Assembly (NCBI GenBank): GCA_964388035.1
Contig: CAYLZE010000005.1
Location: 35,742-99,741 of the forward strand
DNA: 64,000 nt
Reading direction: 5' to 3'
Source of the DNA: an uncultured archaeon
Lineage (GTDB): Archaea; Asgardarchaeota; Lokiarchaeia; Sigyniarchaeales; SOKP01
The notes beneath the pieces were generated by a model that made no database searches, was not told where the DNA came from, and worked only from the letters and a program-made list of their open reading frames with translations. Of this stretch, positions 824-10,835 are shown piece by piece. A program made the translations under genes and the position numbers. How positions within the stretch are numbered: the stretch's first letter is position 1; every line of letters starts with the position of its first letter.

Positions 824-2488
824 TCAACTTGAAATTTTAACTTTTGAATATTTTTTCTTGAGATTTTCAACTTGTTTTAGAGGCACGTTACATTCATTTA
901 TGTCCAAGAATTTTAAATTCATTTCCGTGAAAATCCATTCAGGTATCTTTTCCAGAGGATTTCTCCATAACCATAGTGATTTGAGCATAGGAAGAGTTCT
1001 AATTCCAAGCGGGATCTCCGTAAAATGATTATCATGTAAATCAAAAATTGCTAATTTGTTAAATCCACTTAAATCGGAAGGTAAGGAATCAAGATTATTA
1101 TAACTGAGGTTAAGTCTTTCTAATGAGGCAATCCCCTTGAAATTTGGATCAATTTTTTCTATGCAATTACGATCTACATTTAAAAGATCAAGTGCCTTGA
1201 ATTCTTCGATTTTGGCGGGCAAAAATTTAATTCTATTTTTAGAAAGATCCAATTCTTTCAACGGTCTTATGCAAGTCAATTCCACGGGAAATTCAACTAA
1301 TTCATTTCCGCTTATGTTGACATTTATGAGGGATTCCAATCCCTTCAATGATTTGGGAAGATGCTTCAGTTTACAATCCCGTAGTTCCAGCCATTCTAGA
1401 TTTTTCAAATTTCCAAACGATGCGGGTAAAAATTCCAAGGAGCATTGATCTATTATCACTTTTTTAAGATTTACCAGCATCCCTACTGATTCTGGCAACG
1501 TAATTATCCCGCTCCTATCGATCTCGAGGTTATAGAGACCTAAAAGTTCCCCGAGAGAGTCGGGAAGAGTGATTTCGGAACAATCCAGAACGGTAAGATA
1601 CTTCAACCTTTTGAGATATTTAAAGGTGGTAGGCATCCATTCTTTAGGGAGTTGCAGCAAAAATAACTGCTCCAAAGAAGGAAATTGATTGGGTCGGTCA
1701 AACAATTGTGAAAGGTCAATATGAGTCGCAGAAAAAATCTTAAGCTGGGGCAAGGGACTCAATCGGGCAACTATTTGGTTATTGGTCTGATCATGAATGC
1801 CAAGAATTTCCAAGGAAGTGAGCTTGGAGATGGCCGCTTGAAGAGTCTCGATTTGCTTCGCATCAAGGGGGTTATCTATTATTAGACGCAATTTCTCCAC
1901 GAGACCTTCTTGATTGATCCCTATATCATGGGTGGGCAAATAGAGATTAGCGGGAACCAATTTCCTTATTATAACGACAGCATCACGTTGCGTCTCAGAA
2001 ACATTCGAAAAGATTTCCTCGAGCGAAAAATATTCATGGAATTGACCTATCAGCCAAGTGCGAACGTCCTCGTTCCTGCCTTTGAGGCGTTCCAGAAGCT
2101 CCTCTTTAAACTTCATTTTAACGCACGGTATACCTTGGTTCGCCAATTCTTTGAGTAAAACGAAAGATAGATGAGAATCCAGCAATCGGGTATCATAATC
2201 ATGCATTACCCATGTCTCGAGATTGGAACAGTGGACCCAAAACGCCTCATTGGGAGCGATTAAATCTTCAAGGTCGCGTTCTTCGTATTGATAGAGGATA
2301 TCGTCGATAGACTCGATATTCTTTAGAGCGGGAAAATCATCCTCAGAAAATTCCAAAGCAACAGTCATACATGTCATTATCTCCTTTTCACCAATGAAAA
2401 TGCGAGTCTTTTCATCAATAAGCTTGAGAGTGAGGACTAGTCGTCCTTCATTATCCTTGATCGAATATTCGGAAGGTGATTTGCTCAT
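824..2488 (-). CDS. Leucine-rich repeat protein with Lokiarchaeal N-terminal domain
   Basis: N-terminal FWxHCSNL..W...YDTRLL motif shared with 13314..14045; many LxxLxxLxLxxNxLxxLP repeats at the C-terminus. Confidence 0.9.
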   Translation of the reverse strand: MSKSPSEYSIKDNEGRLVLTLKLIDEKTRIFIGEKEIMTCMTVALEFSEDDFPALKNIESIDDILYQYEERDLEDLIAPNEAFWVHCSNLETWVMHDYDTRLLDSHLSFVLLKELANQGIPCVKMKFKEELLERLKGRNEDVRTWLIGQFHEYFSLEEIFSNVSETQRDAVVIIRKLVPANLYLPTHDIGINQEGLVEKLRLIIDNPLDAKQIETLQAAISKLTSLEILGIHDQTNNQIVARLSPLPQLKIFSATHIDLSQLFDRPNQFPSLEQLFLLQLPKEWMPTTFKYLKRLKYLTVLDCSEITLPDSLGELLGLYNLEIDRSGIITLPESVGMLVNLKKVIIDQCSLEFLPASFGNLKNLEWLELRDCKLKHLPKSLKGLESLINVNISGNELVEFPVELTCIRPLKELDLSKNRIKFLPAKIEEFKALDLLNVDRNCIEKIDPNFKGIASLERLNLSYNNLDSLPSDLSGFNKLAIFDLHDNHFTEIPLGIRTLPMLKSLWLWRNPLEKIPEWIFTEMNLKFLDINECNVPLKQVENLKKKYSKVKISS

Positions 2489-7044: not shown

Positions 7045-8254
7045 ATGGCTGAAGAAGAAAGCTTTTTAAGTGCAAAAGCATTAGTGGTTGACAACGGTAC
7101 AGGAATCTCTAAAAACGGATTTGCTGGTGAGGACCAACCCCGTTCCGTGTTTCCAACTTTAATCGGGTACCCCAAATATGAAAGTATAATGACTGATGTC
7201 GAGCATTATACGAGAGAATACTATATCGGGGAAGAAGCAATGCAACTCAAGGGTGTATTGAAATTAATGTTCCCCGTAGAACACGGAATCATAGAAGATT
7301 GGACTGCCATGGAAAAAATATGGCACTACACCTTTTATACGGATTTGAGAATTGATCCCAGCGAACATCCCGTTCTCTTAACCGAAGCCCCCTTAAATCC
7401 ACGACCAAACAGAGAGAAAATGGCAGAAATCATGTTCGAAACTTTCAACGTGCCCGCGCTTTATGTTGCCATGCAAGCAGTTCTTTCCCTTTACGCGTCT
7501 GGTAGAACCACCGGATGTGTTATTGATATTGGCGACGGAGTGTCTCACGTTGTACCTATTTTTGAAGGTTTTGCGTTGAGCCATGCAATTCAGAGAATTG
7601 ATTTAGCCGGCAGAGATATTACCACTTATCTCCAACGTCTTTTACGACAAAAAGGTCATTCCTTTACGACTTCTGCGGAAAAAGAAATTGTTCGAGATAT
7701 CAAGGAAAAACTCTGCTACGTGGCCATCGATCCTGAAAAAGAAATGATGCTCTCCAAAAAAGTGGCGGGCATGGAAAAGAGCTACATGCTTCCTGACGGT
7801 GAAACCATTAATGTAGGTGTCGAACGATTTTTAGCTCCTGAATGCTTCTTTAATCCTTCCGTCATTGGAAAGGAATTGGAACCATTAGACGATGTCGTCG
7901 TAGGAGCAATTTCCGAGTGCGATGTTGACTTGAGAAGAGATTTATACAGCAACATTGTACTCTCTGGTGGATCTACCATGTTCCCCGGAATAAAGGAACG
8001 TTTGACTAAAGAAATAAAAGAACAGATCCCCGAATCAGTAGATGTAAAAATAATCGCACCTCCCGAAAGAATGTATTCCGTTTGGATCGGCGGCTCAATC
8101 TTGTCGTCTCTTAAAACCTTCCACCGAATGTGGGTCACTAGACGCGAAACCGAAAGAGATCAAAGAATCTCTCGGCGCGAGTACAAAGAAATGGGCCCAC
8201 AAGTAAAGAGAATCGAAAGAGATTCGATTTCGCTTAATTCATCGCTGCTTTTAA
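7045..8254 (+). CDS. Lokiactin (Asgard actin); predicted spliced CDS join(7045..8148,8182..8206,8238..8254), 381 aa. The unspliced frame runs to 8286 (413 aa)
   Basis: Actin signatures [44 protein letters not shown]; removing two insertions restores ...[20 protein letters not shown], matching eukaryotic [21 protein letters not shown]. Confidence 0.95.
8149..8181 (+). other. Candidate archaeal BHB/BHL-type mRNA intron 1 in Lokiactin (33 nt, phase 0)
   Basis: Central helix CGCG 8143-8146 / CGCG 8176-8179; bulge AA^A; inner stems CCGA/UCGG and GAGAU/AUCUC; 3' AG^U; splicing gives CGC GAA UAC (R-E-Y). Confidence 0.75.
8207..8237 (+). other. Candidate archaeal BHB/BHL-type mRNA intron 2 in Lokiactin (31 nt, frameshifting)
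   Basis: Central helix AAGU 8201-8204 / GCUU 8232-8235; bulge AA^A closed by G8208-C8231; inner stem GAAUCGAA/UUCGAUUU; 3' AA^U; splicing gives GUA AUU CAU CGC UGC UUU UAA (VIHRCF*). Confidence 0.8.
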
Positions 8255-8280
8255 GCACGATGCGGGCCCTTCAAATCGCG
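8240..8280 (+). promoter_or_regulatory. Structured stop-codon/3' UTR element of Lokiactin mRNA
   Basis: Hairpin CAUCG(C)UGCUU-UU-AAGCACGAUG over the true stop; GGGCCC 8264-8269 complements 8193-8198; UCGCG 8276-8280 complements CGCGA. Confidence 0.55.
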
Positions 8281-8286
8281 AATTAA

Positions 8287-8852: not shown

Positions 8853-9137
8853 GAAGAGCAGGGCAAAGAACTTCCCAAGCAGAAGGAAAAGAACTTAAAA
8901 TTCCTGACGAAAGAACAGGGCAAAGAACTTCTCAAGCAGAAGGAGAAAAACTTAAAATTCCTAACGGAAGAGCAGGGCAAAGAACTTCTCAAGCAGAAAA
9001 GGGAGATTTTAAAATTCCTAACGGAAGAGCAGGGCAAAGAACTTCTCAGGCAGAAGAGGGAGATTTTAAAATTCTTGACGGAAGAGCAGGGCAAAGAACT
9101 TCTCAAGCAGAAAAGGGAGATTTTAAAATTCTTGACG
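8853..9137 (+). repeat. 57-bp coding tandem repeat x5 plus a partial 6th (19-aa unit EEQGKELLKQKREILKFLT)
   Basis: Units gaagagcagggcaaagaacttctcaagcagaaaagggagattttaaaattc(c/t)t(a/g)acg directly visible. Confidence 0.92.
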
Positions 9138-10835
9138 GAAGAGCAAGGAAAGGAACCCATCGAGCAGAAAAAGGAAGTAAGAAAAAAAGAGTTTGATTTT
9201 CCTATGAAAGAGCAAGTAGAAAAACGAATGAAAGAGAAAAAAGCATCCATTTTACCAGCTAAAGAAAGCGAGATCAAAAGACAAAACAATTTGGATATTT
9301 TTGAAACGGAAAATAGGAAGATTATACTTAAAGAAAAAGCTCGAGAGCTAGAAAACTCAGTAGGGATTGGCAAAGACTTGAAAGAACGAGATCGGTTAAA
9401 AAGAGAGCAAAATTTAGATGAGCTTTCAAAAGGAAAGATTAATGAAAAAGATATAAAACAAAATAAAAAAGAAGTAATTAAAAACCACAAAGAAGGATAT
9501 TATTATGAAAAAGAGTCGATCCTAAAAGTAAAAGAGAATCCATCTAAGCTTAAACCTAAAGAGCAGATAGAGATTCAACATAATCAAAAAAATACACTTG
9601 AATTTAATACTAAAGAGAAAGGACAGGAAAAGCAAAAGAAGGTGATTAAAGAGCAAGAAAAAGAAGAGACCGAAAATAATGCAATTAAATTATTTGAGGA
9701 TTTACGAAAGGAACTCGGCATTTTAAAGGGAGAGCCTAAAACAATATCTGATCCCAATTTAAGTAAAAGTTTGGGACGGGCTCCCAGCTATGTAATGACG
9801 AAAAAGGCACAAATTAAAGAAAATCCTAAATTTCAACTTTCCTTAAAGGAACTATCAGGATTTCAAGAACACTTGAATTTGAAGTATGGAAAGTTAGCCA
9901 GTCGATGTTCTGAGATAATCGAAAAGTATAAAGTAGCTAATCCAGACTTAAAAGAATATGCTCATGAGCAACATGAGGTTAGTAAGCCCCATTTTTTTTC
10001 TAAAGAAAACATGTTATCTAATACACCAGAAGGGAATAATGCATGCTATTTTTACGGATTTCTCCATGCAGATGGTTATAGAAAAGGTAGGTACGTAATA
10101 GGCAGTAGGATTCATCCGCATGATAAATTAGTTTTAGAAAAAATATGTGACGCGATTGGTATTGATCGAGAGAAAATAAAAGTTAGTGAAAACGTAGCGC
10201 AGTTAGAGTTCAAGTGTAAACCAATGCACGCCGACTTAAAAGAGGTTAAGGAGTATTGCATTCCTAACTTTTTAAGACCAAATAGAAAGAAAGTGCTGCG
10301 TTGGCTTCATGGTTTCTATGATGGAGATGGTACACAAGGTCGGACAAATTTTGGATCAGCACATAAAGAAATCTTGATTGATGTTAAGAAGTATTTCGGA
10401 ATAGAAAATGAAGTTTTAAAAACTCTGGAGAAATATACTTATGTCGATAAAGCTGGAAAAACACATGTTAGAAATGAATATTGGACATTAAGCATTGGTC
10501 CAAAGATATTTAATGAAATGCTGCTTTCTAATCCTTCTGGTGGATTACCTAGAAAATATTCTTTCAAGCAGGAGAAAGATGAATCATATAAAAGGTTAAA
10601 AAGAAATGTTGTTATTTTTGAGAAAAGACTCGGAATGCCACTTCAAGAAGCCCTATATAAATATCGGGTTAGCCAATTTAGGGAAATGTTAGGATCGAGG
10701 TCTACATCATTGCATAGGTTAATTACAGAACGAAAGTTAGAACTACCCCCTAAATCATATTGGAAGGATAAACCTACAATTTGGCCAAACAATGAAGTTT
10801 ATAAAGATTTAAAGGATAAACCATTACATGAATAA
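9075..10835 (+). CDS. Free-standing double-motif LAGLIDADG endonuclease-like protein with long Lys/Glu-rich N-terminus (frame open from 8655; true start probably upstream of 9075)
   Basis: Motifs YFYGFLHADG and WLHGFYDGDG about 85 aa apart. Confidence 0.8.
   Translation: MTEEQGKELLKQKREILKFLTEEQGKEPIEQKKEVRKKEFDFPMKEQVEKRMKEKKASILPAKESEIKRQNNLDIFETENRKIILKEKARELENSVGIGKDLKERDRLKREQNLDELSKGKINEKDIKQNKKEVIKNHKEGYYYEKESILKVKENPSKLKPKEQIEIQHNQKNTLEFNTKEKGQEKQKKVIKEQEKEETENNAIKLFEDLRKELGILKGEPKTISDPNLSKSLGRAPSYVMTKKAQIKENPKFQLSLKELSGFQEHLNLKYGKLASRCSEIIEKYKVANPDLKEYAHEQHEVSKPHFFSKENMLSNTPEGNNACYFYGFLHADGYRKGRYVIGSRIHPHDKLVLEKICDAIGIDREKIKVSENVAQLEFKCKPMHADLKEVKEYCIPNFLRPNRKKVLRWLHGFYDGDGTQGRTNFGSAHKEILIDVKKYFGIENEVLKTLEKYTYVDKAGKTHVRNEYWTLSIGPKIFNEMLLSNPSGGLPRKYSFKQEKDESYKRLKRNVVIFEKRLGMPLQEALYKYRVSQFREMLGSRSTSLHRLITERKLELPPKSYWKDKPTIWPNNEVYKDLKDKPLHE

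Follow-up and report, generated by a model that had tools for sequence, protein, structure and literature searches.

The Lokiactin gene at 7045..8286 (+) of the window, the 64,000-nt stretch of contig CAYLZE010000005.1 analysed here (assembly GCA_964388035.1, from an uncultured archaeon of the Asgard class Lokiarchaeia), is interrupted by two inserts of 33 and 31 nt, which are very probably introns spliced out of the mRNA by EndA and RtcB, the enzymes of tRNA splicing. The inserts, their geometry, the covariation of their helices, the selection on the spliced frame and the genes for both enzymes can all be read from the DNA. Splicing of an actin mRNA by an Asgard archaeon had been proposed in a preliminary description of this stretch, and all of its sequence-level predictions hold. 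Below, G000 denotes the genome carrying the window (5.47 Mb in 211 contigs, completeness 96.7%, contamination 7.3%), other G numbers the genomes of relatives, and L041-L047 metagenome contigs.

The 413-aa open reading frame (ORF) is an actin (Pfam Actin, E=1.7e-127 over residues 10-370) and the sole Lokiactin among the four actin-fold genes of G000, the other three being 29-38% identical to it. Orthologues in 40 relatives share 89-99% of their amino acids with it (96-99% in the same family and 89-92% in other families of the order), and exon 1 differs from that of G001, G002 and G013 by 180-197 synonymous and 4-5 non-synonymous codon differences. On this comparative evidence the gene is functional and under strong purifying selection. 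As the preliminary description had pointed out, the ORF lacks the normal actin C-terminus, the codons for which, ATT CAT CGC TGC TTT TAA (IHRCF*), are found out of frame at 8237..8254. Deletion of 8149..8181 (33 nt) and 8207..8237 (31 nt), also put forward there, gives a protein of 381 aa (368 + 8 + 1 + 4 codons) that ends as in 27 of 29 relatives' loci; length and C-terminus are those of the relatives, and most matches in a survey of the class are likewise full-length, 1-381. Between the two inserts lies a micro-exon reading TAC AAA GAA ATG GGC CCA CAA GTA A, that is YKEMGPQV plus the first base of Ile. Without splicing, the frame that follows the shift at site 2 occupies 8207..8286, of which 8255..8286 would become 3' untranslated region once the mRNA is spliced. 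Exon 3 is intact in G000 though out of frame in the DNA, and its counterpart in G013, ATA CAC CGA TGC TTT TAG, carries only synonymous changes when both are read in the spliced frame.

Relatives were compared through the 3' ends of 29 loci and through a DNA alignment made without regard to any motif. All but two of these loci, those of G008 and G013, end uninterrupted in the conserved C-terminus or a near variant of it, and the alignment places the G000 inserts as clean insertions, one of 33 nt after CGCGAA and one of 31 nt after CAAGTAA; G001, of the same genus, carries neither. In the class survey, Lokiactin was found in 141 of 161 genomes and was interrupted in five, namely G000 and four others with inserts of 30-31 nt, and actin is uninterrupted in both complete genomes of the sister family, each of them a single contig. 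One pattern scan of metagenome contigs added L041-L047, bringing the set to 13 inserts of 30-33 nt at five Lokiactin sites in five genomes and seven contigs (Table 1). The codon boundary of intron 1 is occupied by a 30-32-nt intron in six other contigs. Four of the five sites fall in the last ~25 codons, which may partly be explained by the design of the search.

Reading through the inserts leads to unrelated tails or early stops, the stop lying at codon ~94 in G022 and ~20 codons before the end in G060. Their removal restores the conserved C-terminus in all eight genomes and contigs processed for sites 1, 2 and 4, and rejoins conserved sequence at site 3 in G022; the joined end at site 5, read by hand, is YK(D/N)LGPQVIHRCF*. 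Wherever the insert shifts the frame or bears a stop (G008, G013, G022, G060 and L041-L044), the downstream exons have been kept in the spliced frame. Other truncated Lokiactin matches in the survey fall at contig ends. A larger insert hiding the gene was considered for G020, G122, G069, G102 and G116, five near-complete genomes that gave no Lokiactin match, and rejected, as only distant paralogues are present there and the gene is simply unassembled. No actin 3' end with two inserts was found in a scan of other species representatives. In another survey genome, the Lokiactin at G059:C96:5971-7113 (L036) has one in-frame TGA at unchanged length, for which an error in sequencing, a nonsense allele and recoding are all candidate explanations.

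The site-1 intron of G000 cannot be aligned to the other introns at this site, which suggests either an independent gain at the same position or a fast turnover of sequence. A blastn-short search of G000 with its two introns returned no further copies, so they do not belong to a repeat family, and flanking direct repeats of 0 to 5 nt indicate that there is no fixed target-site duplication.

Every boundary compatible with the exon sequence was scored against one cutting rule. Under it, a central helix H is formed between exon positions -6..-3 and positions -6..-3 of the intron 3' end, an intron stem h' abuts the bulge, and each 3-nt bulge is cut after its second base; the h' pair count tolerates one irregularity. 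For each of the 13 inserts exactly one such boundary conforms, with 3-4 of 4 pairs in H and 8-9 pairs in h'. H is complete in eight introns, including both of G000, and has three of four pairs in the remainder, and h' at both G000 sites comprises 9 pairs, 4 of them contiguous, where the class asks for at least 2 contiguous pairs in one of the flanking helices h and h'. The exon sequence permits a single boundary for intron 1, which is the one given by the rule, and four for intron 2, of which the rule selects one. Homology fixes these boundaries independently of the rule. At random positions in G000, an H of at least 3/4 with a stem of at least 8 pairs arises at a rate of 0.20%, or 0.03% for an H of 4/4; with a rate this low, no more than six permitted boundaries for each insert and five or more independent introns, a chance origin is excluded.

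With two 3-nt bulges on opposite strands and cuts after the second base, the logic of the product gives the correct joined sequence at both sites of G000. Both inserts thus have the form first described for them, a 4-bp helix, an AAA bulge closed by an intron stem and three unpaired nt after the 3' helix strand, and the EndA cuts then predicted, which restore the frame, lie among the boundaries that the exons allow. Lacking an exon-exon helix h, the introns are classed as HBh', and those of G000 qualify as 'canonical HBh'' under the definition of a recent study (bioRxiv 10.64898/2026.10.13.758758). The first base of both bulges is A in all 13 introns, the commonest forms being AA/A and AA/T (the slash marking the cut), and this may reflect a sequence preference of the EndA of this lineage or the way in which the introns originate. 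At site 1 the bulge-helix-bulge (BHB) conformer is the minimum free energy (MFE) fold, at -13.7 kcal/mol, with H pair probabilities of 0.98-1.00. An alternative site-1 register proposed by RNAalifold, in which the A-run is slid by two, was rejected because it lacks a 3' bulge and would lead to the wrong product. It was also observed that in the MFE fold UGGGUC of exon 1 (8131..8136) pairs with GGCCCA of the micro-exon (8194..8199). These bases are set by the W-V and G-P codons and are present in intron-less genes too; the pairing could help to hold the exons together, a role that is unproven.

The helices also covary. Among the six homologous introns at site 1, 82% of cells are paired compared with 38-53% when the partner strand is slid, and 7 of 12 pairs have changed on both sides, which was matched by 2 of 500 shuffles; the covariation score was reached by none of the 500. 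The clearest example is the third H pair at this site, which joins the synonymous third base of an exon Arg codon to an intron base and is C-G in G000, U-A in L041, L042 and L044 and G.U in L043, with a mismatch in G008 (U.U) and G060 (C.A). At site 2, the stems of G000 and G013 lie in the same register, with 96% of cells paired against 31-46% when slid, and show two double changes (A-U to U.G and C-G to A-U), two sequences having little statistical power. A Tyr codon base covaries at site 5, where L045 has TAC paired to G and L047 has TAT paired to A, and the ten inserted codons of these two contigs differ at several positions with compensating changes that keep the hairpin. In the comparison of compensatory changes and of presence and absence that the preliminary description recommended, both helices covary and the inserts are sporadic (5/141 genomes).

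Candidate enzymes are encoded in the same genome, as G000 has two EndA paralogues of ~200 aa at C146:8038-8643 and C33:37574-38173, each with an N-terminal and a catalytic domain, and one RtcB gene. Asgard archaea are reported to have an (alpha-beta)2 EndA with an L1 loop that gives broad specificity (PMC5829648). Lokiactin would be transcribed as a three-exon pre-mRNA in which each insert folds as a relaxed BHB of class HBh'. Exon positions -6 to -3 would pair with intron 3' positions -6 to -3, an intron hairpin of 8-9 bp would close the 5' bulge, and the 3' bulge would be left without a closing exon-exon helix. The heteromeric EndA is predicted to cut at 8148/8149, 8181/8182, 8206/8207 and 8237/8238, in each case after the second bulge base, and RtcB to ligate exon 1, the 25-nt micro-exon and exon 3. 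The expected junctions are AGACGCGAA/TACAAAG and CACAAGTAA/TTCATCGC, and the mRNA would encode a normal 381-aa actin, with the 33- and 31-nt introns probably released as circles. Cleavage, ligation, the order of both events and the retention of the micro-exon are what we infer from the sequence.

Several observations weigh against this account. One H mismatch is present in 5 of the 13 introns, and the exon-exon helix h has 0 pairs at both G000 sites (0-2 pairs among the inserts), so nothing obvious would hold the exons together after cleavage, the 25-nt micro-exon least of all. At site 2 the BHB conformer (-5.8 kcal/mol) is less stable by 2.9 kcal/mol than a rival fold that pairs the AAA bulge with UUU, and the local fold is no better than that of shuffled sequences (z -0.64). 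H occurs in both folds, with pair probabilities of 0.59-0.72, and the assignment of site 2, as a reading of sequence, leans on the logic of the frame and on the G013 homologue more than on folding energy. Intron 1 of G000 is in frame and free of stops, no homologue of its sequence was found, and taken alone it could be translated. Motif-first scans of G000, which sought HBh' motifs flanked by two long open frames that become one when the motif is taken out, with displaced partners as controls, gave no excess, either in the general form (396 real clusters compared with 415 and 423 in controls) or with a sharper motif (15 compared with 13-15). Such scans cannot count introns because junctions of adjacent same-strand genes also fit the ORF logic.

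The one serious rival as a way of reading such genes is programmed translational bypassing, in which the mRNA remains unspliced and the ribosome leaves it ahead of each hairpin to land on the far side. Phage T4 gene 60 and the mitochondrial 'byp' elements are examples. The Lokiactin inserts are indeed short hairpins that start directly after the last normal codon, and the take-off and landing triplets are alike at site 1 in several cases (GAA/GAG in G000; GAA/GAA in G060, L042 and L044) and at site 3, where both are GCT. However, a codon is split at sites 2 and 5, the triplets are unlike in G008 and L043 (GAA/GAT), at site 4 (AGA/AAA) and at site 2 (GTA/TTA), and the near-palindromic H and the A-rich bulges account for the triplet repeats at site 1. 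The inserts do not show the mark of bypass elements, a match between the take-off and the landing codon with no codon split, and bypassing predicts neither the 4-bp helix with its 3-nt bulges nor the covariation of exon and intron 3' end, which makes it very improbable here. An equally small probability is assigned to retention of the inserts, in which either the actin made has 11 extra residues inside and a foreign tail of 30 residues or the gene is decaying. The uninterrupted 413-aa ORF and the in-frame, stop-free intron 1 would suit such a protein, but strong purifying selection acts on this gene, which is the only Lokiactin copy, the IHRCF* exon has stayed intact although out of frame, with synonymous-only differences in G013, and the unspliced tails are wholly different between genomes, with stops in G022 and G060.

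The inserts might also be taken out of the RNA by machinery other than EndA and RtcB, for instance a different nuclease and ligase, or a small motif that cleaves itself. Removal is needed, but the enzyme has been deduced from the shape of the motif only, and the lack of an exon-exon helix is unusual for efficient ligation. Shape and cut rule are nevertheless exactly those of EndA substrates (PMC2738675; bioRxiv 10.64898/2026.10.13.758758), and an insert of 30 nt could not accommodate a group I or group II intron, with its ribozyme core of hundreds of bases, leaving this reading a slim chance. Spliceosomal, group I and group II introns were considered for the 31-33-nt inserts and rejected; the inserts start with A and end in AG or AA, and no permitted boundary gives GT..AG ends. 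Least credible of all is an artefact of assembly or binning, with the inserts absent from the DNA of the organism. G000 is a draft metagenome-assembled genome (MAG) of 211 contigs with 7% contamination, and the exact sequence of its intron 1 is found only here. Inserts that are homologous or occupy the same site nevertheless recur in assemblies made independently by different projects, namely those of G008, G013 and G060 and the seven metagenome contigs, and an assembler error would not yield structured, covarying hairpins at codon-exact sites.

The closest parallel to splicing of Lokiactin by EndA and RtcB is the cbf5 pre-mRNA intron, reportedly the subject of work by Watanabe in 2002 and Yoshinari in 2006. 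In Crenarchaeota (Desulfurococcales and Sulfolobales) this intron measures 16-44 nt, forms a relaxed BHB at one ancestral site and is the substrate of a hetero-oligomeric EndA, which cuts between residues 2 and 3 of the bulge (Yokobori 2009, PMC2738675). The Lokiactin introns are similarly short, lie inside coding sequence and have an unconventional relaxed BHB with a predicted cut between bulge residues 2 and 3; their host also has a hetero-oligomeric EndA, and they too are too small for a homing enzyme and present or absent by lineage. They differ in gene and phylum and are not homologous, so that they function alike but stand outside the cbf5 family. The cbf5 intron has one site, in the catalytic Asp codon, and a common origin, whereas introns occupy five sites in Lokiactin, and at one site they are not all homologous. 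Further, the Lokiactin mRNA has two introns around a 25-nt micro-exon and G000 has at least seven split genes, unlike the cbf5 case, and cbf5 splicing was demonstrated by cDNA and enzyme assays whereas the evidence for Lokiactin is its sequence.

Asgard genomes are rich in non-canonical tRNA introns, which have been gained repeatedly (PMC5829648; bioRxiv 10.64898/2026.10.13.758758). These tRNA introns of Asgard and TACK archaea share with the Lokiactin introns the definition of the motif (HBh'/hBH) and the enzymes, but in Lokiactin the substrate is an mRNA, in which no tRNA body holds the exons together. In the latter of these two papers the term 'mrna' has 0 occurrences and the single 'protein-coding' passage concerns neighbouring genes. 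A further mRNA with a BHB motif that serves as EndA substrate is HVO_1309 of Haloferax volcanii, in which an intron in the 5' UTR (untranslated region) is processed by EndA in vivo and in vitro (PMC7714728). Its intron is in an untranslated leader with no reading frame at stake, has a strict BHB and belongs to a euryarchaeon, all in contrast to Lokiactin, for which EndA processing is predicted from the DNA. Within archaeal coding sequence, the searchable literature gives BHB introns for cbf5 only, and no paper in it mentions an 'intron' in connection with Lokiactin or an 'mRNA intron' in connection with Lokiarchaea, subscription-only papers lying outside these searches; this agrees with the initial impression that the split Lokiactin is undescribed. 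The mechanism is already known. What is new is the lineage, the gene, the two introns around a 25-nt micro-exon, the five sporadically occupied sites in one gene and their being part of a genome-wide set of split genes.

Six other genes of G000 are split by 29-31-nt HBh' hairpins, across which their Pfam profiles run on without a break. They encode pyrG, a zinc alcohol dehydrogenase, a creatininase-family protein, an E2 ubiquitin-conjugating enzyme, an FGGY kinase and an enzyme of the thymidine/AMP-phosphorylase type, and the positions are C37 ~630-662; C50 ~19069 and ~21721; C38 ~34332; C149 ~3791 (-); and C32 ~9855 (-). In pyrG a 31-nt hairpin stands between DQDFG and KYERFLG. Five of the 15 matches of the strict-motif scan are real, with conserved motifs rejoined and adjoining Pfam profile coordinates. 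Counting actin, the sequence points to at least eight introns in at least seven protein genes of G000.

Downstream of Lokiactin and outside the splicing unit, a 586-aa ORF (9075..10835) with a repetitive, K/E-rich N-terminal half contains two LAGLIDADG-like motifs, GFLHADG and GFYDGDG. Its LAGLIDADG identity is unconfirmed, with no relevant Pfam match and no PDB sequence match, and a single-sequence AlphaFold model was unusable (pLDDT 36). Its sole homologue among the fetched actin loci is a piece of 34 aa (59% identity) beside the actin of G013 (L011 2798..2899, -), on the opposite strand and truncated where the contig stops. G000 and G013 are the two genomes that have the site-2 intron, and the ORF is possibly linked to this intron. 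In phages, a free-standing homing endonuclease beside an ORF-less intron constitutes 'collaborative homing'. The likeness is that a LAGLIDADG-like ORF adjoins actin in both genomes with the site-2 intron; unlike the phage systems, fold and activity are unconfirmed, one of the two cases is a 34-aa fragment and the site-1 loci have no such ORF.

It is more probable than not that mRNA splicing by tRNA enzymes forms an obligatory and dynamic layer of gene expression in this lineage, with introns of some dozens of bases repeatedly gained and lost, five sites in actin alone, at least seven split genes including the eukaryote-signature actin and E2, ligation of an actin mRNA from three pieces, and a LAGLIDADG-like gene that may spread the site-2 intron as DNA. 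If double splicing is indeed needed, this lineage would have protein genes in pieces whose mRNAs must be spliced, by the protein-only route of tRNA splicing and with no spliceosome, which bears on the intron tolerance of the archaeal ancestor of eukaryotes. In Asgard MAGs, gene-calling software will also turn such inserts into proteins that are frameshifted, cut short or wrongly extended, and for the present gene it would predict a 413-aa 'actin' ending in a junk tail. The phenomenon may have been overlooked because both complete genomes of the sister family have an uninterrupted actin.

Table 1. Features of the Lokiactin locus (window positions), Lokiactin inserts in genomes and metagenome contigs, and profile positions in the other split genes of G000.
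Feature	Position	Strand	Details
Exon 1 of Lokiactin	7045..8148	+	368 codons, last two CGC GAA = R E; identified by Pfam Actin, identity and codon differences
Site-1 central helix H, exon strand CGCG	8143..8146	+	pairs with CGCG 8176-8179, 4/4 Watson-Crick
Intron 1, 33 nt	8149..8181	+	in frame, stop-free; not in 27/29 relatives' loci read
Intron 1 parts			5' bulge A8147 A8148 / A8149; h' 8150-8175; H' 8176-8179; 3' bulge A8180 G8181 / T8182
Exon 2, 25-nt micro-exon	8182..8206	+	collinear with uninterrupted genes
Site-2 central helix H, exon strand AAGU	8201..8204	+	pairs with GCUU 8232-8235, 4/4 including one G.U
Intron 2, 31 nt	8207..8237	+	frame-shifting; homologous 31-nt intron at same site in G013
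Intron 2 parts			5' bulge A8205 A8206 / A8207; h' 8208-8231; H' 8232-8235; 3' bulge A8236 A8237 / T8238
Exon 3	8238..8254	+	TT CAT CGC TGC TTT TAA; completes Ile, then HRCF and stop, as in relatives
End of unspliced read-through tail of 413-aa ORF	8255..8286	+	tails of different genomes mutually unrelated
Neighbouring 586-aa ORF	9075..10835	+	two LAGLIDADG-like motifs; outside splicing unit
Inserts in G000	sites 1 and 2		33 nt and 31 nt
Insert in G008	site 1		31 nt
Insert in G013	site 2		31 nt
Insert in G022	site 3, EDWTA/MEK; L031 about 2334..2378	-	30 nt, in-frame TAG and TGA
Inserts in G060	site 4, FHR/MW (L034 311..408), and site 1	-	31 nt (site 4), 30 nt (site 1)
Inserts in L041 = L046 (identical), L042, L043, L044	site 1		31-32 nt
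Inserts in L045, L047	site 5, inside YK/(D/N)LGPQV; L045 677..721, L047 5607..5651		30 nt, in frame
Creatininase			Pfam exon 1 2-101, exon 2 103-224
FGGY_N			Pfam exon 1 1-78, exon 2 79-217
UQ_con (E2)			Pfam exon 1 18-62, exon 2 68-139
ADH_N			profile picks up again at position 15, after KRCG^ICGSDVH
Thymidine-phosphorylase type			N-domain then a/b domain, junction DKHS^TGG

Aragorn called only 22 tRNAs in G000, of which 15 have an intron, and most tRNA genes of this genome probably escape detection through having several introns or non-canonical ones. This fits the heavily interrupted tRNA genes described for Asgard archaea (bioRxiv 10.64898/2026.10.13.758758).

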